DNA from: a virus
Lineage: Duplodnaviria > Heunggongvirae > Uroviricota > Caudoviricetes
Length of the DNA: 64,000 bases
IMG/VR virus record: IMGVR_UViG_3300027708_000034
Span: 18,332-82,331 of that record
Strand: one strand, 5' to 3'
Part shown: positions 8,692 through 32,894 of the stretch, piece by piece
Numbering within the stretch: the first letter of the stretch is position 1
Layout of the letters: each line of letters opens with the position of its first letter
The notes under the pieces: generated by a model
Told to the model about the DNA's origin: nothing
The model's input: the letters and a program-made list of their open reading frames with translations, nothing else
Databases searched by the model: none
Program-made: the position numbers and the translations under genes

Positions 8692-9578
8692 TGTATCTTC
8701 AATTTAATGAAATCAACAATGTGTTGTGCCATGTCCTGCCCACAATGCTTATCCATTCCTTTGAATCCAGGACTGCTGTTTGCCTCACATACTTTATACC
8801 CATCTTTATCGAATAATAAGTCAACTCCTGCTATCTGTAGGCCTAGCACACGAGCAGTTTCTCTTGCGATATAATCAATCTCCGGCGTGATATTAAATAA
8901 TTCACCGTGACCGCCTTGGCTGATATTAGCGCGGAAGTCTCCTTCTGCCCCTGTTCGTTTCATGGCTACGACGGTTTTACCACCTATCACCCATACTCTT
9001 AAATCAGTTCCTGGCATGGCATCTACAAATTCTTGTATGATCAATGTTTTCTTTAATGCTATGCTTGATAGCAATTCCATTAGACCTTCGAAAATTTTTC
9101 GTGTCTCGCATAGATAAACTGTCTTACCTCTACTGCCGCTAGTGGCTTTTACTACGCATGGAAACCCAATCTCTTTTTCAATCAACTCAATATCAACATC
9201 TCCGTTGACCAATATAGTTTTAGGAATAGGTAAACCTGCGCTGGCCAATACTTGACTGGTCATTAATTTATCACTAACTATTGCCACACTTTCGGTATCG
9301 TTAATAACCGGCACGCCTAACTTTTCAAACTGACGCATCAATGCCAGTGTAAAATAAGCACTACCTGATCCGGTTCGGCTTAATATCAAATCTGGTAAAT
9401 CGATCTTTTCGCCCCGATATCTGATACTTTTAGAATTTCCACGATTGACAATAATATCAAAATATTTTGGTTCAAGTATTTTGCTATCTATTCCGTTCTG
9501 TTGAAGACATTCAATCAGTCTGGTATTTTCATAAGCAGTAATTCCACTAGCGTGATGAAGTATCCATACTCGTTTCAT
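8688..9578 (-). CDS. rimK: RimK-like ATP-grasp ligase (alpha-L-glutamate ligase family)
   Basis: Colinear with E. coli RimK: DFRANISQGGHGE and EANSSPGFKGM motifs at the ATP-grasp C-terminus. Size 296 aa. Confidence 0.85.
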   Translation of the reverse strand: MKRVWILHHASGITAYENTRLIECLQQNGIDSKILEPKYFDIIVNRGNSKSIRYRGEKIDLPDLILSRTGSGSAYFTLALMRQFEKLGVPVINDTESVAIVSDKLMTSQVLASAGLPIPKTILVNGDVDIELIEKEIGFPCVVKATSGSRGKTVYLCETRKIFEGLMELLSSIALKKTLIIQEFVDAMPGTDLRVWVIGGKTVVAMKRTGAEGDFRANISQGGHGELFNITPEIDYIARETARVLGLQIAGVDLLFDKDGYKVCEANSSPGFKGMDKHCGQDMAQHIVDFIKLKIQ

Positions 9579-18321: not shown

Positions 18322-18542
18322 GTCTGCTTCTTAGGATCTTCGATTTTAGCGTCGATACAGGTGCCTTCTAGTATGGTCATCTTTCCGGCATTGGCCTGCT
18401 CAGCAACTTCCAGCATATGTATTTTTTGACTGTCGATGCTGGCTCTGCATTGTGCCTCACTTCGATAAACTGTTTGGGCCTGCATAAAATTACAGTTGCC
18501 ATTCATACAGATGAACAGCACAGGTATAAAAATTTCAATCAT
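18318..18542 (-). CDS. Small hypothetical protein with hydrophobic N-terminus and four Cys
   Basis: ORF in an ATGA-overlap chain. IFIPVLFICMNGNC N-terminal hydrophobic segment. Confidence 0.4.
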   Translation of the reverse strand: MIEIFIPVLFICMNGNCNFMQAQTVYRSEAQCRASIDSQKIHMLEVAEQANAGKMTILEGTCIDAKIEDPKKQT

Positions 18543-21784: not shown

Positions 21785-23020
21785 CTATGCGGCAGGTGTG
21801 TCAACGGCTTTTTTATTAAATTCCATCAAGGCGTTGCCTTTGCCGCCCACAGTGTTTTTATCTATAACAATTTTAACCAGTCCTCGTTCCACTAGATCCA
21901 TGGCTTCAAACTGATACGGCAGTAATATTTTTTCGATGATGTTTTTCAATCCACGAGCGTTAGTTTTAAGTTCCTTGGCTTTCTCAGCTATCTGTGATAA
22001 TGCTTCTTTTTCAAACATTAGTTCGATGCCATCTAATTTAAAAATGTATTGATACTGTTTGACAATGCTGTTCTTTGGCTCGTCCAATACCTGCACGAGA
22101 TTTTCGATAGACAATTCATCCACGTTGGTGATCAATCCAAACCTGCCTACAAACTCAGGAATCAATCCGTACTGTATAAGGTCCTTGGTGCTGACTAATC
22201 TGTAGGGGTTTTCTACCACTGTTTTATCTACAGAAGCTGAGTGGAATCCCACGCTGCGAGTATCCATACGTTTTTCGATCAGCTTGTCTAAGCCAACAAA
22301 TGCCCCGCCGCATATAAACAAGATGCTGCTGGTATCGATTTCCTGCATGTCACCGCCCGGGTGCTTACGCTTGCTGGTAGAAGGGATACGCATGATGCTG
22401 CCTTCGATCATTTTTAAGAGTGCCTGCTGTACGCCTTCTCCTGACACATCTCTTGTTATGCTGACGTTTTCGCCTTTACGTGCGATTTTATCTATCTCGT
22501 CGATATAAACAATACCCCGAGATGCTTTGGCTACATCACCATCAGCTTCGTTGATTAGTCGTGTTAGAATGCTTTCCACATCATCACCCACATAGCCCGC
22601 TTCTGTGATACCTGTGGCATCACATATGACAAAAGGCAGATCCAAATACTCGGCAATCTTTCTTGCCAGCATGGTCTTGCCGCAACCAGTAGGTCCTAGT
22701 AATAGTACATTGGTCTTTTCTAGTCGTATTTCTTTACTTGGATTGTTGATGCGCTTGAAGTGTTGACTGACTGCTACACTAAGAGCAATTTTAGCATCGT
22801 CCTGTCCGACAACATAATCGTCTAGGTAATCTTTGATCAACGTGGGATTCAAAAGATTTTTATGATCGTGAGGTTTTTTACCCTTTTCATCATTTAGTAT
22901 TTCCGAGCATAGGTCTATGCAGTCATTGCAAATAGCAGCATGTTCACCGACTATAAGTTTTTCAACATCTTCTTTGCTCTTACCGCAAAAATCGCAATTA
23001 TGATTTGTTTGTGTCGTCAC
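21785..23020 (-). CDS. clpX: ClpX ATP-dependent protease ATPase subunit (N-terminal C4 zinc finger plus AAA+ domain)
   Basis: CDFCGKSKEDVEKLIVGEHAAICNDCIDLC zinc-binding domain. LLLGPTGCGKTMLARKIAEYLDLPFVICDATGITEAGYVGDDVESIL is colinear with E. coli ClpX. Confidence 0.9.
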   Translation of the reverse strand: MTTQTNHNCDFCGKSKEDVEKLIVGEHAAICNDCIDLCSEILNDEKGKKPHDHKNLLNPTLIKDYLDDYVVGQDDAKIALSVAVSQHFKRINNPSKEIRLEKTNVLLLGPTGCGKTMLARKIAEYLDLPFVICDATGITEAGYVGDDVESILTRLINEADGDVAKASRGIVYIDEIDKIARKGENVSITRDVSGEGVQQALLKMIEGSIMRIPSTSKRKHPGGDMQEIDTSSILFICGGAFVGLDKLIEKRMDTRSVGFHSASVDKTVVENPYRLVSTKDLIQYGLIPEFVGRFGLITNVDELSIENLVQVLDEPKNSIVKQYQYIFKLDGIELMFEKEALSQIAEKAKELKTNARGLKNIIEKILLPYQFEAMDLVERGLVKIVIDKNTVGGKGNALMEFNKKAVDTPAA

Positions 23021-27369: not shown

Positions 27370-28260
27370 TTAGAAGCTATATTCTAAACCAACGCCATAG
27401 CGCGTGGTATCAGAGCTTGCATCTTCCAACAAGTAACGAGCCAATACTTTGGTATTTTTACCTATGTCATAGTTAAGACCCACGTTGTAGGCCTTGGTAG
27501 AACTGACTTCACCGTAGCTGGCCATTGCGGTCAATTTTGGCATCACTGTTTGAGTAACACCAACGCTTCTACCTGTGGTTGCTACACCGCTGACTGTGTC
27601 GTCGGAATATAGACCAAATACAGTTGTACCAGTCTTAGCCAGGGTGTACTTAACGCCATAGGCATTGGTTAGACTTGTTACACCGTTGTCAAAACGAGCA
27701 TATGTAAGTCCAACTGGACCAGCAGCGAAAACTAAACTGGCAGTATAAGAGTTTGGTGTACCAGCGACTTCACTGTTGCTGTATACATAGTTGGCTGTCA
27801 AACCATCTACGAATGTATTGGTAGATAGGAATATGCCATTGCTCAAACGTGTACCTTGATATGCATGGATAGTGCCTGCACTGGATCCAAACAAATCACC
27901 ACCCATGGCATCAAACGAGTCAAGTGCTTTGGTTAGGGAAGTCTTATCACGACCCAATCCCATTGTGCCATACTCATTCTTAAGTCCGATCAAGGCAATG
28001 CGATCGCCAATGGTGCTGGCGGTTGGTGTATCAATACCCACACCTACTTCGATTTGACCAAATGCTGATAGTCCATCACCGAGGTTGTCGCCTGCCTTGA
28101 AACCAAGACGGCTTTTGTCGTTGGTTAAAGAAGTAACAGCGGCTGCTGTGCCAACGGTGGAGGATTCCTCGTAGACACGGCCCATGCCGTAAACGGTGAC
28201 ATCGGCTTGGGCTAATCCCATGAATCCGATTAATGCTGCAAAGATTGCAAGTTTTTTCAT
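27370..28260 (-). CDS. Outer-membrane general porin (Gram-negative porin, Porin_4/OmpC-like beta-barrel)
   Basis: Signal peptide MKKLAIFAALIGFMGLAQA. Alternating amphipathic beta-strands. C-terminal ...YGVGLEYSF with terminal Phe (OMP sorting signal). DVTVYG start typical of neisserial/betaproteobacterial porins. Confidence 0.8.
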   Translation of the reverse strand: MKKLAIFAALIGFMGLAQADVTVYGMGRVYEESSTVGTAAAVTSLTNDKSRLGFKAGDNLGDGLSAFGQIEVGVGIDTPTASTIGDRIALIGLKNEYGTMGLGRDKTSLTKALDSFDAMGGDLFGSSAGTIHAYQGTRLSNGIFLSTNTFVDGLTANYVYSNSEVAGTPNSYTASLVFAAGPVGLTYARFDNGVTSLTNAYGVKYTLAKTGTTVFGLYSDDTVSGVATTGRSVGVTQTVMPKLTAMASYGEVSSTKAYNVGLNYDIGKNTKVLARYLLEDASSDTTRYGVGLEYSF

Positions 28261-28348: not shown

Positions 28349-28591
28349 TTAAAATTCTTTTAGTCGGGCAATGTCTTTATGTTTGACGATTATTATATGT
28401 TTAATTTCGTCGTTGTATTTAATGGGCAAGTCTAGGTGTATGGTTATTTCAGGACCGGAGTCATTGATTTTACGGTCATTTCCCACTGAACCGACAAAAG
28501 GAATCTCGTTCCAATAGCCAAATACTCTATCTCCTATAGAATACTTGGGCTTGTAGCCTTTTTCGTTAAAATAGTCTGCGAGGCTTGGCAT
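28349..28591 (-). CDS. Small hypothetical protein (start uncertain; the long N-terminal extension of the 145-aa ORF overlaps the GDSL gene and is probably not translated)
   Basis: Conserved-looking C-terminal 80 aa after the internal Met MPSLADYF. Confidence 0.3.
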   Translation of the reverse strand: MPSLADYFNEKGYKPKYSIGDRVFGYWNEIPFVGSVGNDRKINDSGPEITIHLDLPIKYNDEIKHIIIVKHKDIARLKEF

Positions 28592-29021
28592 CTTTGGTTT
28601 GCTCCGCAAGGTCCCTATATCCAGACCAACTGGGATGGATGTTGTCTTTTTGTACACGAGTGAAGGGTAAAACAATGTCACCATTTTCCGCGGCGACTGC
28701 CTTGACGAAACGTTGTATCCATTCAATATCCATACCACCGGCAGGGTTGTTGCCATGTGGCAAGATCCAAAACACATGCTCGGCATTGACTGCCTTACGT
28801 ATCTGTTGTAATTCGAAGATAGTTCTCACATTTTTATGATCATTGGAGCCTAAACTGATGATCACAGTTTTAGCCTCGGGCAATACACCCTGATCACTTT
28901 TTAGATATTGTTTGTTCCATTGCTGACTATTGATACCACCTTTGGCCATGACCGCACACTCAGGTCTAAACTGTTGTGTACCTACTGCTATACTATCACC
29001 TAAAATCAAACATTCAATCAT
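28566..29021 (-). CDS. SGNH/GDSL hydrolase family protein
   Basis: Block I GDSIAVG, block III GSNDH, block V DNIHP (DxxH). Confidence 0.65.
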   Translation of the reverse strand: MIECLILGDSIAVGTQQFRPECAVMAKGGINSQQWNKQYLKSDQGVLPEAKTVIISLGSNDHKNVRTIFELQQIRKAVNAEHVFWILPHGNNPAGGMDIEWIQRFVKAVAAENGDIVLPFTRVQKDNIHPSWSGYRDLAEQTKDAKPRRLF

Positions 29022-29417: not shown

Positions 29418-29642
29418 TCATTTCTCAATCTTCACATTTTTTCGAAAGTCGCAGGCTCTACAATGTGTTCCACTAAAGTATTCACCTTGTTTATTATGCC
29501 AAATGAATAGTTTAGTTGTCATCCAATGATCGCCAATCTTACATTGTTTGCGACGGTCGTCCCAGGTCATGTGATCCGCAAACACCAACCAACCCCATCC
29601 TGCCAGGGCCGCGATAAACAATACAGCACTAAAGTAGATCAT
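29418..29642 (-). CDS. Small membrane protein
   Basis: Hydrophobic segment YFSAVLFIAALAGWGWLVF. Coupled to the next gene by an ATGA overlap. Confidence 0.4.
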   Translation of the reverse strand: MIYFSAVLFIAALAGWGWLVFADHMTWDDRRKQCKIGDHWMTTKLFIWHNKQGEYFSGTHCRACDFRKNVKIEK

Positions 29643-30046
29643 AATATTTCTTCTTCCAAATATCGTTTCAATTCTTTGTCCAAGGGCTGTACTGTGTAAT
29701 TCTGTTTGAAAAATATTTCATAACTGTCACTGCCGTACTTGCCAATCCCATACAACACTGTAGCATCATCGCCGTCCCAAGTCAACCAGTCACGACTCAT
29801 GCCCACCAACCTCTTGTAGCGCACATTGGTCATGCCCAGGGGTTTGATAATGCTTTTGACAAATTCCTCATCGGCGGAGATCAATGCCTCGGGTGTGGGA
29901 AACCAATATAGGAATTCAGGCAAGGTGGTCTTGACTGGTTTGCGTCCGGTTTGGTTCAGCATGATCACGCCCACCATATGTTCCCAACTGTTCTGTATCT
30001 GTTGCTGTACCATTAGGTCATCGCGTAGGGGTTCGAAAAATTTCAT
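29639..30046 (-). CDS. Short HhH-GPD-like protein (possible DNA glycosylase)
   Basis: VGVIMLNQTGRKPVKTT...FPTPEAL...VLYGIGKYGSDSYEIF...QPLD: helix-hairpin-helix Gly-rich turn followed by a P-x-D about 18 aa later. Confidence 0.4.
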   Translation of the reverse strand: MKFFEPLRDDLMVQQQIQNSWEHMVGVIMLNQTGRKPVKTTLPEFLYWFPTPEALISADEEFVKSIIKPLGMTNVRYKRLVGMSRDWLTWDGDDATVLYGIGKYGSDSYEIFFKQNYTVQPLDKELKRYLEEEIL

Positions 30047-30321
30047 TTATAGCATTCCCAGGTGTTGGCATCATAGTTCCAGTGCCGTGTGTCGTAGAAT
30101 TCTAGTTCAATTTCATAACCAAATACTCCAAACATCAATCTAGCACCTGCATGGTCGCCTCGTAGTGTCCAGTGGAAATCTACATTAATGATATGACCAG
30201 TGCGGTATCCGTTAAACTCCCAGGCCTTGTTCTGGGAGATGAATCCCGACTTGTTCCACAGGATATCCCAGATCTTGGCGGACCTCCATGGCATGGCCAT
30301 GCTAAAGTTTAGATTGATCAC
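30043..30321 (-). CDS. Hypothetical protein (GTG start)
   Basis: ORF. Its start codon overlaps the stop of the downstream small paralog. Confidence 0.4.
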   Translation of the reverse strand: MINLNFSMAMPWRSAKIWDILWNKSGFISQNKAWEFNGYRTGHIINVDFHWTLRGDHAGARLMFGVFGYEIELEFYDTRHWNYDANTWECYK

Positions 30322-30479
30322 GATTCAACTCCGAAATGTTCTTTAATCCTACGGTTAATCTCCGTTAATACCTCTTCGGTAACATCTTTGACCTTGCCTG
30401 TTAGAACACAATGTTCGTGTTCCCAAGTGCAGATTGTTTTACTTTTTCCATCTTGCTCAACCACAACCGATAGTTTCAT
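30318..30479 (-). CDS. 53-aa protein with the C-terminal IKEHFGVES motif (short member of the FGVE family, not in the ORF track)
   Basis: Translates as MKLSVVVEQDGKSKTICTWEHEHCVLTGKVKDVTEEVLTEINRRIKEHFGVES. Shares the 17-nt 3' DNA repeat ttcaactccgaaatgtt with two paralogs. Confidence 0.4.
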   Translation of the reverse strand: MKLSVVVEQDGKSKTICTWEHEHCVLTGKVKDVTEEVLTEINRRIKEHFGVES

Positions 30480-30736
30480 TCTTCAACTCCGAAATGTTTT
30501 ATTACACGGACGATGTCTTTTTGTAAAAGATTAGCACCATTCAAATCTCCCTTGTCTAGTAGTTGCTTACGATCTTTTCCAAGAGTAAGTTCTAAACATT
30601 CCCTAACAATCAACTCGGCGAACTTTGGCAAAAAGATTTCGTTATAGAGACGTCTGTTTCTACGACTTTCATCTTCATATTCTGCCTTGATTTCTTCTTC
30701 AGCCTGTGACCAAAGTTCTTTAATTCGTTCGTTCAT
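30476..30736 (-). CDS. Small protein, MNERIKEL.../KFAELIV/FGVEE family member
   Basis: MNERIKELWSQAEEE...KFAELIVRECLE...HFGVEE. Confidence 0.55.
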   Translation of the reverse strand: MNERIKELWSQAEEEIKAEYEDESRRNRRLYNEIFLPKFAELIVRECLELTLGKDRKQLLDKGDLNGANLLQKDIVRVIKHFGVEE

Positions 30737-30996
30737 TCTTCAACTCCGAAAATGTTCTTAATCGTTTCACCGGCATCAAACATACCATCTTCCCAACCCA
30801 CTTGATAATCAGTGCTTTTGTCCCGACGCAATTCCTGTGTATCAAGAACCGTATATCGCAATTCTTCGAGACATTCCTTGACAATCAACTCGGCGAACTT
30901 TTCTCGGTCAAACACTTCAAAGGTAAGTGGATTGTAAGGTGTAGGGCCTTGAATAGAGGTAGCCTGCTCAGCAAGTTGTTTAATTCGTTCGTTCAT
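30733..30996 (-). CDS. Small protein, MNERIKQLAEQA/KFAELIV/FGVEE family member
   Basis: MNERIKQLAEQATS...KFAELIVKECLEE...IFGVEE. ATGA overlap with the previous member. Confidence 0.55.
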   Translation of the reverse strand: MNERIKQLAEQATSIQGPTPYNPLTFEVFDREKFAELIVKECLEELRYTVLDTQELRRDKSTDYQVGWEDGMFDAGETIKNIFGVEE

Positions 30997-31245
30997 TTAC
31001 ATTCCTTCACATTTAACGCCGCCGCCATTATCACCAATCACCTGCTGTGGAAATCCACGTTGACCGATAATGAATTTATAACCATCTATACAGCGTGATT
31101 CAGTCAAGCCATTAATGCCCATGCTAACATTGCTGGAACCGTTTTGAGATACAGCAAAAAAGCCAAAGACCGCTATAACAATAATAAAACCTATTGCTAT
31201 AACCATCATCAATTCAATTAAAGTAAATCCGTGATTAGTTTTCAT
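30997..31245 (-). CDS. Type IV pilin/pseudopilin-like protein (prepilin-type N-terminal cleavage/methylation domain), 82 aa
   Basis: MKTNHGFTLIELMMVIAIGFIIVIAVFGF: G^FTLIE with Glu at +5 and a hydrophobic alpha1 helix. Short C-terminal domain with one Cys pair. Confidence 0.6.
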   Translation of the reverse strand: MKTNHGFTLIELMMVIAIGFIIVIAVFGFFAVSQNGSSNVSMGINGLTESRCIDGYKFIIGQRGFPQQVIGDNGGGVKCEGM

Positions 31246-31481
31246 TCTTTAACTCCAAATTGGCGTGCGATTCTATATGCCACAATGCCTACCGCATTTG
31301 ATTCTTTAACAAGTTTGGCATTTACCAGTTGATCATCCCAATTTTTAGCAATATTCAAACAGTCTCGCACAATCAACTCGGCAAACTTACTTGCTGTAAA
31401 ATCGGAATAATCAATCCCCTCGGCACCAAAGCGAGCACCAGCCTTGTGTAGAAGGCTATCTATTAGTTGTTGATTCATCAT
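31242..31481 (-). CDS. Small protein, KFAELIV/FGVKE family member
   Basis: ...SKFAELIVRDCLNIA...RQFGVKE. First gene after the promoter at 31512-31540. Confidence 0.5.
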   Translation of the reverse strand: MMNQQLIDSLLHKAGARFGAEGIDYSDFTASKFAELIVRDCLNIAKNWDDQLVNAKLVKESNAVGIVAYRIARQFGVKE

Positions 31482-31511
31482 TCAACTCCAAAATCGCTTA
31501 GTTAAAACAAT

Positions 31512-31546
31512 ATTATACACAAAAAGAAGGGGCCTGTCAAGGCCCC
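31512..31546 (-). promoter_or_regulatory. Compact terminator-promoter module: the hairpin ggggcc-TTGACA-ggcccc terminates the SPFH gene, and its loop supplies the -35 of a TTGACA-N17-TATAAT promoter for the paralog/pilin cassette
   Basis: Minus-strand hairpin followed by TTCTTTTT. -35 in the loop (RC of 31535-31540). -10 TATAAT (RC of 31512-31517). Confidence 0.55.
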
Positions 31547-31564
31547 TGTGTTGTTTATCGACGA

Positions 31565-32422
31565 TTACTTACCAATGTTCATCAGGGTCTTTGTATCGCC
31601 GCCCAACATTGTGCTAGGCAATGCACCGTTCCACTTTTCAATCCACTGCAACTTGACATAGTTCTCACCACCGTTGCTTTGGATAGCAGCGGCTTGGATC
31701 GCGATGGCCTTGGCTTCACCATCTGCTTGTGCGATACGACTTGCAGCCTCAACTTTGATACGCTCCAGGTCTTGTTGAGCCTTGGCAGTTTGTTGCACAG
31801 AGATCACCTTGGCTTCGATGGCCTTTTGATATTCAGGACTGAATCCAAAATTCACCAAACTAATATTGCTCACCGTGATGTTGAACGGAGCCATCTTTTC
31901 CACCAAGTGCTGTAGAATTTCTGCACTGACCAAATCACGTTTGGTAACCAATTCTTCACTGGTGTAGTGACCAGTCACACTCTTGAACGCTTCGTTGATG
32001 CCAGGGCCAAGAACCTTTTCATCCACATTGAGACCGAACTCTTTATAGATATGTGGTACTTTGAGTGGATCTAGACGATAGTTAACCACGATGTCAGTAT
32101 GCACAACCTGCAGGTCTTTGGTACCTGCATTGGCACCTTTTAGTTCCGCCTTCTGTAGACGAACATCCACATCCTTGATTGAACTGATTGGATTCACAAA
32201 GTGAACACCTTCAGTCAAGGGCAAGGGATTGACTTCACCAAGTGTAACCTGTACACCAGTGTGTCCTGCACTGATCACAGTAAATGCTGAAACTCCAATT
32301 GATATGAGAATAATTGCTAGACCTGTAAGTACGCCCAACGCAATCTTTTTGAATTCTGACATAAAAATAATAGCACCTGCTACTAGCAAACCTACGATGA
32401 CACCCACAAGAATTGTGAACAT
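31565..32422 (-). CDS. SPFH/band-7 (prohibitin/HflC-like) membrane protein
   Basis: N-terminal TM helix. SPFH core (QVVHTDIVVNYRLDPLKVPHIYKEFG...) and a C-terminal coiled-coil alanine-rich region. Confidence 0.8.
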   Translation of the reverse strand: MFTILVGVIVGLLVAGAIIFMSEFKKIALGVLTGLAIILISIGVSAFTVISAGHTGVQVTLGEVNPLPLTEGVHFVNPISSIKDVDVRLQKAELKGANAGTKDLQVVHTDIVVNYRLDPLKVPHIYKEFGLNVDEKVLGPGINEAFKSVTGHYTSEELVTKRDLVSAEILQHLVEKMAPFNITVSNISLVNFGFSPEYQKAIEAKVISVQQTAKAQQDLERIKVEAASRIAQADGEAKAIAIQAAAIQSNGGENYVKLQWIEKWNGALPSTMLGGDTKTLMNIGK

Positions 32423-32445
32423 GATATTCCTTTGTTAAAAATTAA

Positions 32446-32479
32446 ATTATACACAAAAAGAAAGGGCCCGTCAAGGCCC
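32446..32479 (-). promoter_or_regulatory. Second compact terminator-promoter module (hairpin gggcc-TTGACG-ggccc, T-run, -10 TATAAT), near-identical in architecture to 31512-31546. Promoter for the SPFH gene.
   Basis: -35 in the loop (RC of 32469-32474), 17-nt spacer, -10 (RC of 32446-32451). Hairpin followed by TTTCTTTTT on the minus strand. Confidence 0.55.
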
Positions 32480-32574
32480 TTTGGTTGTTTTGATAATAAG
32501 GTAAGTCCTACCTCACCAAAGCCTAAGCGGCGATGGAATATAACTCGTCGTTTGCAGTTATGAAATTTGCTTGA

Positions 32575-32802
32575 TTAACGGTCATCGCCTACCGTGTTGC
32601 CGTCGCCACTATCTAGCCCAATCGATCCTGTGTCAGGCCCAACATAAAGAAACTTTGGAATAGGATTATTAAATCCTTTAAATCCTGTAAAACGATATCC
32701 TAGATTAGGAATATCCCAAAGTAAAGGTGCCCAACACACTCTTTTTACTGTGTCATCTTTGTCTACTACAACAAAATACTGTTTTACTTTTTCCAATTTC
32801 AT
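32575..32802 (-). CDS. Small hypothetical protein (ATG at 32802; the track shows a TTG start one codon upstream)
   Basis: ORF. Preceded by a GC-rich structured leader. Confidence 0.4.
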   Translation of the reverse strand: MKLEKVKQYFVVVDKDDTVKRVCWAPLLWDIPNLGYRFTGFKGFNNPIPKFLYVGPDTGSIGLDSGDGNTVGDDR

Positions 32803-32894
32803 CAAATTTCCTTATGGTGGACCTGCCGGGCACTGCCCCCGGGTCTTGGCCTCCTTCGTTTTGAAGGGATTACAACAATAACTCTTACTTATCT

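Follow-up and report, generated by a model that had tools for sequence, protein, structure and literature searches.

We analyzed a 64,000-nucleotide stretch of a caudoviricete genome (IMG/VR record IMGVR_UViG_3300027708_000034, positions 18,332 to 82,331), referred to here as the window, and propose that the product of a small gene at 30997..31245 on its minus strand, the mini-pilin gene, is an early envelope protein specific to phages and composed of two modules. According to this proposal, to which we assign a probability of roughly 0.4, a pilin-type stem brings a small C-terminal domain (C-domain) to the type IV filament machinery of the host, where it would block or cap assembly. Such a membrane-tethered effector is more likely than a pilus subunit, and its target is probably the type IV pilus or the type II secretion system (T2SS) of the host. 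An earlier note, made from the sequence alone, had described the 82-amino-acid (aa) open reading frame (ORF), its leader MKTNHG and the Glu at position +5 at exactly these coordinates, with the strand unstated, and had taken the product for a type IV pilin- or pseudopilin-like protein.

The mini-pilin ORF starts with ATG, encodes 82 aa followed by a stop codon, and translates to MKTNHGFTLIELMMVIAIGFIIVIAVFGFFAVSQNGSSNVSMGINGLTESRCIDGYKFIIGQRGFPQQVIGDNGGGVKCEGM. It is a real gene and no chance match, as its homologues, purifying selection, a Shine-Dalgarno sequence, and translational coupling attest. Fifty-four homologues came from a large protein search, every one of them 77–108 aa long with the same motif and C-terminal part, and 48 of the 54 have a precomputed match to PF07963. 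In a codon-level comparison of 38 genes, the ratio of nonsynonymous to synonymous substitution rates (dN/dS) was 0.05–0.2 for the closer pairs, with a median of 0.24 across the 211 pairs with usable dS. The mini-pilin start codon shares bases with the stop codon TGA of the 79-aa ORF upstream of it (ATGA), and the downstream ORF begins at the base right after the mini-pilin stop codon; the gene is therefore part of a translationally coupled string. Additionally, the identical 82-aa protein is encoded, with 0–1 synonymous differences, on 10 short metagenome contigs. It occurs there in two flanking contexts, next to either a Band_7 and 79-aa gene pair or a GIY-YIG and 64-aa gene pair (metagenome contigs L063–L068), and these dual flanks are a direct sign of recent cassette shuffling around the gene. 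The gene and the parts of its product map to the window as follows.

30997..31245, minus strand: mini-pilin ORF with prepilin signal (N_methyl and TIGR02532 matches; purifying selection in relatives)
31253..31256, minus strand: Shine-Dalgarno sequence GGAG, 7 nt 5' of the mini-pilin ATG (direct reading of the sequence)
31228..31245, minus strand: leader MKTNHG, whose last residue is Gly(-1) at the site where prepilin peptidase is predicted to cut (from the sequence and its homologues)
31144..31227, minus strand: pilin-type alpha1-N stem, from mature F1 (Phe7) to approximately residue 34, with Glu+5 (E11), Gly13, and Gly22
31000..31134, minus strand: C-domain, residues 38–82, predicted four-stranded antiparallel beta-meander, with Cys52 at 31090-31092 and Cys79 at 31009-31011

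The N-terminus of the protein, MKTNHG|FTLIELMMVIAIGFIIVIAVFGFFAV, has all elements of a class III signal: a basic leader of 6 residues, Gly at -1, the hydrophobic Phe at +1, Glu at +5, and about 20 hydrophobic residues. It matches Pfam N_methyl (PF07963) with 30.4 bits against a cut-off of 21.2 (E 2.5e-7; residues 1–27 over profile positions 1–27 of 27) and TIGR02532 with 25.8 bits against a cut-off of 16.3. The prepilin signal seen in the earlier note is therefore genuine; the same note had named the lack of an N_methyl match as the finding that would speak against it. A regular-expression search of all six frames of the window located the motif with its hydrophobic run at a single site, directly after the start codon of the mini-pilin ORF.

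The signal is also conserved in a manner that hydrophobicity alone does not explain. Alignment A3, whose residue numbers we follow, comprises 55 sequences with 38–99 per cent overall identity, and in it G6, F7, T8, I10, N45, R51, C52, I53, G64, Q68, G76, and C79 are invariant, L9 and E11 are conserved in at least 90 per cent of the sequences, and no position of the membrane helix (residues 12–32) is conserved. Invariant residues at -1, 1, 2, and 4 of the mature numbering (G, F, T, and I), next to an otherwise free transmembrane (TM) segment, point to constraint on the peptidase and assembly motif. Among 126 canonical members of the wider family, the first four mature residues are F in 93 per cent, T in 99 per cent, L in 90 per cent, and I in 90 per cent of the sequences, the E at position 5 being set by the selection pattern. 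The stem of these members fits the consensus of type IVa (T4a) pilins and T2SS pseudopilins, with Gly14 in 45 per cent and, at position 22, Pro in 37 per cent and Gly in 25 per cent. All 109 family leaders of at most 15 residues contain K or R, and most are 4–6 residues long. The stem of the window clade is thus more constrained than a plain membrane anchor requires and looks functional; such constraint points to recognition by the prepilin peptidase of the host, and possibly by the assembly platform as well.

Likeness to pilins is limited to this stem. A profile search of the PDB matched geopilin, PilA, PilE, MshA, and GspG, and in each case the match covered profile positions 2 to approximately 45, which correspond to the stem. 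Every NCBIfam equivalog model considered (GspG, GspH, GspI, GspJ, PilA, ComG) scored far below its cut-off, with matches confined to the first 38 residues; specifically, the scores were 17.6 bits for GspH (cut-off 80), 14.7 for GspG (88.85), 13.4 for GspI (44.35), and 14.9 for ComGE (49). The name 'pseudopilin PulG', which JGI metagenome pipelines give to close relatives, therefore overstates what their sequences support.

The C-domain is predicted to face the periplasm. AlphaFold2, supplied with an alignment of 138 sequences, gave a model with a mean predicted local distance difference test score (pLDDT) of 85, in which a helix at residues 9–34 (pLDDT 89–96) is followed by strands at 38–43, 46–53, 56–60, and 66–68 (C-domain pLDDT of approximately 88–91); with the 55-sequence alignment, the topology was the same and the pLDDT was 71. 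Cys52 and Cys79 are invariant in the 138 sequences, and about 10 further positions are near-invariant. The C-domain has no match in Pfam or in PHROG, including PHROG queries with the C-domain only, and a Foldseek search with the predicted model retrieved neither a fold match in the PDB nor a pilin fold. In the pilin fold, a long alpha1 helix of about 50 residues, with an N- and a C-terminal half, lies against a 4–5-stranded antiparallel sheet, and in the D-region of T4a pilins two C-terminal cysteines form a disulfide-bounded loop. In the model of the mini-pilin, the helix stops at mature residue 28, and the alpha1-C half that contacts the sheet of true pilins is therefore absent; the predicted structure does not have the pilin fold. 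Judged from this model, the helix, four-stranded sheet, and tail pinned by two cysteines would be pilin-like only in outline. The globular part is indeed very short, as the earlier note had remarked (approximately 45 aa), but its proposal of a minor pilin or pseudopilin is not borne out by equivalog scores below cut-off, matches restricted to the stem, and a C-domain without pilin fold.

It is the C-domain, not the pilin signal, that is conserved across the family and that we take to be its functional unit. A search of 1.84 billion cluster representatives (clusters at 50 per cent identity) with profile A4, which covers the C-domain only, matched 250 clusters at E <= 1e-3, 90 of them at E <= 1e-10. 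Nearly all of the matched proteins are 54–230 aa long and carry the domain at the extreme C-terminus; the family can be described as small phage proteins ending in ...NGxTExRCIxGYKFxxGxxGxxxQxxDxxGxGxxC. The window protein is the seed of the profile and has its C-domain at the extreme C-terminus, behind one membrane- or periplasm-targeting segment, the arrangement that defines membership. We classified the N-termini of 205 family sequences, with the following result.

Prepilin-type motif with Gly(-1): 129/205 (63 per cent)
Clearly decayed motif without Gly(-1), e.g. MKDFTLIE or MRITIIE: 10/205
Generic hydrophobic N-terminus: 58/205 (approximately 28 per cent)
TM segment missing (5) or second Cys not in register (3), with probably truncated gene calls among them: 8/205

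Inspection of the non-canonical members uncovered many further xTLIE relics in which the Glu is kept, which suggests a prepilin-type ancestor and repeated decay of the motif. For 43 of the 63 members with a generic TM segment or none, the closest neighbour in the C-domain is prepilin-type, which is about the background frequency. The type of anchor therefore appears to be evolutionarily labile, a caveat being the short length and weak phylogenetic signal of the domain. All classes of N-terminus are periplasm-targeting or membrane-anchoring, whether as a prepilin signal, a signal-anchor, or a lipoprotein-like signal. Members from named phages illustrate this range.

BUCT-ZZ01 ('Synechococcus'): prepilin N-terminus; C-domain profile 63.6 bits
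Acidovorax ACP17: Sec-type or TM N-terminus; C-domain profile 29.5 bits
Xanthomonas JGB6: prepilin N-terminus and helical linker; C-domain profile 17.6 bits
Xanthomonas XacN1 ORF355: lipoprotein-like signal (…AIGGC); C-domain profile 21.2 bits

The profile scores of XacN1 and JGB6 are weak when taken alone and are backed by the mutual match of the two C-domains (48 per cent identity, E 5e-9). Some members (P0168, P0155, P0095, P0123, and P0127) have N-terminal extensions of 70–170 residues before an internal GFTLIE, and two of the extended members have a SEC-C zinc motif that abuts the prepilin motif and in P0168 scores 38 bits with Pfam SEC-C. An internal prepilin motif after a long extension can be discounted in many cases, as a Met just before the motif indicates over-long ORF calls; this explanation fails for P0095, P0123, P0127, and P0168.

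As far as sequence searches reach, the family is found on phage or viral contigs only. Fifty-one family loci come from IMG/VR, the longest of their contigs measuring 374 kb, and all inspected loci lie in phage-like context. A 267-kb contig with a family member carries a terminase, a RecA/UvsX-like gene, a Gp23 match, and a helicase, and further contigs carry ClpP, ClpX, ClpS, IF3, HSP20, and SmpB. Among 50,697 GenBank phage records, the family occurs in only four phages (BUCT-ZZ01, ACP17, XacN1, and JGB6); a fifth, Delftia phage RG-2014, has a family member in BFVD. When 185,579 species genomes of bacteria and archaea were scanned, 0 confirmed relatives emerged, with the proviso that the scan used a single peptide pattern, which distant copies could escape. 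At the DNA level, megablast against the 50,697 phage records found no close phage relative for positions 29500-32500 of the window.

The mini-pilin gene lies in a T4-like genome, as the earlier note had supposed: a 1049-aa virion protein of the window is 52 per cent identical to a protein of cyanomyovirus S-CAM1, and PHROG matches in the window include a long tail fibre, a baseplate wedge, and NrdA. The gene is situated 31 bp plus one gene downstream of a perfect sigma-70 promoter that is embedded in a terminator hairpin. Such composite terminator/early-promoter cassettes, named PeSL, are described from hyperplastic regions of T4-like phages (PMC4122927), which agrees with the T4-like affiliation. 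From this PeSL-type cassette we infer that the mini-pilin gene would be transcribed early, by the host sigma-70 polymerase, and that it resides in a shuffled accessory region; the two flanking contexts of the identical protein agree with shuffling. The elements immediately surrounding the gene are listed below.

31512..31547, minus strand: PeSL-type terminator/early-promoter cassette with hairpin AGGGGCC-TTGACA-GGCCCCT, T-run, and TTGACA-17 nt-TATAAT (12/12)
32446..32482, minus strand: second, near-identical PeSL-like cassette with GC hairpin, T-run, and TATAAT at 17-nt spacing
31242..31481, minus strand: 79-aa ORF that opens the transcription unit, with motif KFAELIVRECL...FGVEE; its stop overlaps the mini-pilin start
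30476..30996, minus strand: two paralogues, of 87 aa (30733..30996) and 86 aa (30476..30736), directly downstream of the mini-pilin gene
31565..32422, minus strand: SPFH/Band_7 membrane protein, 285 aa (Band_7 104 bits, phrog_200); the preceding transcription unit

In both cassettes, which are the only two copies within the window, the -35 box (TTGACA or TTGACG) lies in the hairpin loop. They resemble the PeSL elements to which modular shuffling in T4-like phages has been attributed.

We propose the following course of events. Host sigma-70 RNA polymerase would transcribe the gene from the PeSL promoter in the first minutes of infection, and the product would insert into the inner membrane with its N-terminus inside and its C-terminus outside (N-in/C-out). 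The first module, a class III signal with a T4a/T2SS-like alpha1-N stem, is predicted to be cleaved at G6|F7 by the host prepilin peptidase (PilD/GspO), which would leave a tethered product of 76 residues with a periplasmic C-domain. The stem would then recruit this mini-pilin to the assembly machinery of the type IV pilus or the T2SS pseudopilus, thus serving as a delivery and anchoring device that may have been swapped out in other lineages. The second module, a 45-residue and putatively disulfide-stapled beta-meander at the periplasmic face of the inner membrane, would act as the effector, either by blocking or capping assembly or by binding a periplasmic component at that site. As an outcome, the infected cell would lose or alter a surface machine, with superinfection exclusion or host takeover as the possible benefit. 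Cleavage at G6|F7 is a conjectural step, and so, further along the chain, are attachment to the pilus or T2SS apparatus, the identity of the target, and any phenotype; pilus or T2SS poisoning and superinfection exclusion, which the earlier note had put forward, are plausible as putative functions. A bolder version of the proposal, which we regard as rather doubtful, is that the two-cysteine beta-meander represents a new class of phage-restricted early periplasmic effectors; in most lineages it would be carried by a pilin stem and, in the role of 'Trojan-horse' or chain-terminating subunit, would jam type IV filament machines, with the anchor swaps indicating action at the base of the machine and not in the fibre.

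Several further genes lie near the mini-pilin gene. The three flanking paralogues (79, 87, and 86 aa) share KFAELIV(R/K)(E/D)CL and a C-terminal FGV(E/K)E, have no Pfam, PHROG, or PADLOC match, and belong to a family that is present near the mini-pilin gene in 17 related loci; an assignment of these small ORFs to DUF7205 was rejected, as the alignment showed all three to be a different family. In 30 of 61 loci (a set of related phages in which redundant loci were kept), the family gene has an SPFH/Band_7 gene no more than 2.5 kb away, upstream or downstream; in locus L005 the two are immediately adjacent, whereas 12 loci with at least 9 kb of sequence on both sides are free of SPFH. Also found repeatedly in the neighbourhood are genes for a DUF7205 protein, a protein of 336 aa, and a DEAD helicase. 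Envelope-related genes cluster near the mini-pilin, namely those for the SPFH/Band_7 protein, a porin-like ORF, and an SGNH/GDSL-like hydrolase.

Some additional observations concern these neighbours. The phage SPFH proteins have two forms of anchor, an N-terminal TM segment (as in the window, 31565..32422) or a lipoprotein signal (…ATGC|TRIETGEVG); in relatives, SPFH/Band_7 genes are located at 9202..9999 of L005 and 6230..7027 of L009. An apparent SPFH linkage in Xanthomonas phage JGB6 was discarded: the ORF named 'prohibitin family' (L070 2733..3797, OQ436456) carries a radical-SAM-like motif, CPIGCRFC (CxxxCxxC), and on reading its sequence has no obvious SPFH character, so that the names in this record look unreliable. 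The porin-like ORF (27370..28260, minus strand, 296 aa) has a signal peptide and a Porin_1 match of 38 bits; no homologue of it is present in the 61 related loci, and a scan of 185,579 genomes for host prediction found no close bacterial relative. This phage porin is possibly another gene for envelope remodelling or exclusion. The hydrolase (28566..29021, minus strand) scores below the Pfam cut-off. Also on the minus strand are ClpX (21785..23020, zf-C4_ClpX and AAA_2) and a short HhH-GPD glycosylase-like protein (29639..30046); these two and the hydrolase are encoded within one accessory region. Just upstream of the SPFH gene lies a permuted two-piece transfer-messenger RNA (tmRNA) at 32523..32877, minus strand, which matches the full Rfam model RF04321 with 122.6 bits (gathering threshold 47) and for which ARAGORN predicts the tag ANDELYSIAA; SmpB is encoded on the related contig L007. 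Two-piece tmRNAs have already been reported in aquatic phages such as Melnitz (PMC9004378).

The proposed link to type IV filaments has to be weighed against several observations. Approximately 28 per cent of the 205 classified members have a generic TM segment and at least 10 have a decayed motif without Gly(-1), the type of N-terminus does not track C-domain similarity among these members, and no pil, gsp, or peptidase A24 gene was seen near the family gene in the inspected contexts. Many lineages would thus do without prepilin processing, which weakens the link. The range of N-termini also favours a periplasmic effector of a generic, membrane-tethered kind that has no relation to type IV filaments, for which the prepilin signal would merely be a compact N-in/C-out anchor, and which might, for example, block the tail lysozyme or DNA ejection of an incoming phage, as do Sp and Imm of T4, or modulate the envelope or lysis. 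We consider this main rival explanation possible, although tentative. It accounts for an anchor that is interchangeable (129 prepilin-type, at least 10 decayed, and approximately 58 generic TM N-termini), as exemplified by the Sec-type or TM segment of ACP17 and by the C-domain shared at 48 per cent identity between lipoprotein-like XacN1 ORF355 and prepilin-type JGB6; it is also in line with the C-domain being the conserved part and with an early hyperplastic region shared with envelope genes (SPFH, porin, SGNH hydrolase). However, a plain anchor leaves the conservation of G-1, F1, T2, I4, and E5 in the window clade and the pilin-like G14 and P22 unexplained, and Pfam, PHROG, and PADLOC reveal no homology to Sp, Imm, or known inhibitors. 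That the protein is instead a structural mimic, polymerised into the host pilus or pseudopilus and changing or masking a phage receptor in the manner of the prophage-encoded minor pilin P-FimU, is in our view unlikely. Both the class III signal and the consensus of alpha1-N are present in full, the C-terminal cysteine pair may resemble the D-region of T4a pilins, very short pilins exist (a geopilin of 61–69 aa is the top PDB match), and P-FimU and the 60-residue PilA-like proteins of virulent Pseudomonas phages provide precedents; yet the minor-pilin and pseudopilin equivalog models come nowhere near their cut-offs, there is neither an alpha1-C half nor a match to the pilin fold, and the motif needed for polymerisation is missing in a third of the family. 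Because about a third of the members have generic, decayed, or lipoprotein-type N-termini in place of the canonical signal, incorporation into a host pilus, which the earlier note had also considered, cannot be the core mechanism of the family.

It is quite improbable that the mini-pilin is a partner of the neighbouring SPFH/Band_7 protein, functionally comparable to the NfeD partners of bacterial SPFH proteins, which have a C-terminal OB-fold domain. The proximity of SPFH genes in 30 of 61 loci, on both sides of the family gene and with two versions of their anchor, their adjacency in L005, and the position of SPFH as the preceding transcription unit in the window would fit such a partnership, but the 12 SPFH-free loci and the occurrence of the identical 82-aa protein beside a GIY-YIG gene in place of SPFH would not. 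Moreover, Pfam returned no NfeD match at E <= 1, and, as the loci come from related phages with redundancy kept, inherited synteny could account for the linkage. Finally, a chance ORF or a non-functional remnant of a captured host pilin gene might be suspected from the small size of the protein and from its hyperplastic, shuffling-prone surroundings. This suspicion is effectively refuted by the conservation data: purifying selection and 250 clusters with a conserved C-domain contradict it, as do the Shine-Dalgarno sequence with translational coupling and the identical protein on 10 metagenome contigs.

If processing and interference with the pilus or T2SS hold true, the mini-pilin would be a compact early-infection tool of virulent phages of environmental Proteobacteria and would extend the principle of prophage P-FimU to lytic phages. 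The family is almost wholly uncultured, and ACP17, XacN1, JGB6, and BUCT-ZZ01 offer cultured entry points. Its variable N-termini (prepilin, generic TM, lipoprotein) amount to a natural domain swap, by which entry into the pilus could be told apart from mere exposure to the periplasm.

Compared with known systems, the mini-pilin has several features in common with PilA, the geopilin PilA-N, and GspG: a short basic leader, the motif G|FTLIE with its Glu+5, a hydrophobic alpha1-N in which Gly or Pro occurs around positions 14 and 22, and cysteines in the C-terminal part. In contrast to them, its similarity stops at approximately mature residue 30, it has no alpha1-C half and no alpha-beta roll, and its gene lies outside any pil or gsp locus and on phage contigs only. 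A likeness of another kind, by description, is that to Sp (spackle), Imm, and the antiholin RI of phage T4, which are small (80–100 aa), early, envelope-targeted proteins encoded in variable regions: in these as in the mini-pilin, a small periplasmic domain extends from an N-terminal signal or anchor. To our knowledge, Sp, Imm, and RI do not use class III signals. There is no similarity to them in sequence or fold, the mini-pilin has no Pfam, PHROG, or PADLOC match that would connect it to them, and PADLOC matched neither the mini-pilin nor six of its neighbours.

The closest parallel in phages is P-FimU of F10-like Pseudomonas prophages, which replaces FimU at the pilus tip and blocks tip-binding phages (Sztanko et al. 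2026, PMC12952977). Both proteins are phage-encoded with a prepilin-type N-terminus, and for both, action on type IV pili in the exclusion of other phages is shown or proposed. Four groups of PilA-like proteins of putative function, one of them truncated to approximately 60 residues, are described from virulent phages (PMC12952977). P-FimU is a full-size homologue of one minor pilin and complements a fimU deletion (PMC12952977), whereas the mini-pilin has no homologous head domain (17.6 bits with the GspH/FimU-type model, cut-off 80), its gene stands under a lytic early promoter, and the pilin signal is dispensable in its family. Six PHROG families (phrog_3433 'pilin', 27437, 11263, 11596, 13280, and 10597) also match the stem of the mini-pilin and its relatives; their matches span residues 1 to approximately 39 only, and none extends over the C-domain. 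Given P-FimU, the PilA-like groups in virulent phages (PMC12952977), and these six PHROG families, a phage gene with a prepilin signal is not unprecedented, and the statement of the earlier note that lytic phages normally do not encode pilins is too strong. What appears to be new, on present sequence comparisons, is the C-domain family itself, along with its large size, its confinement to phage contigs, and the interchangeability of its anchors.

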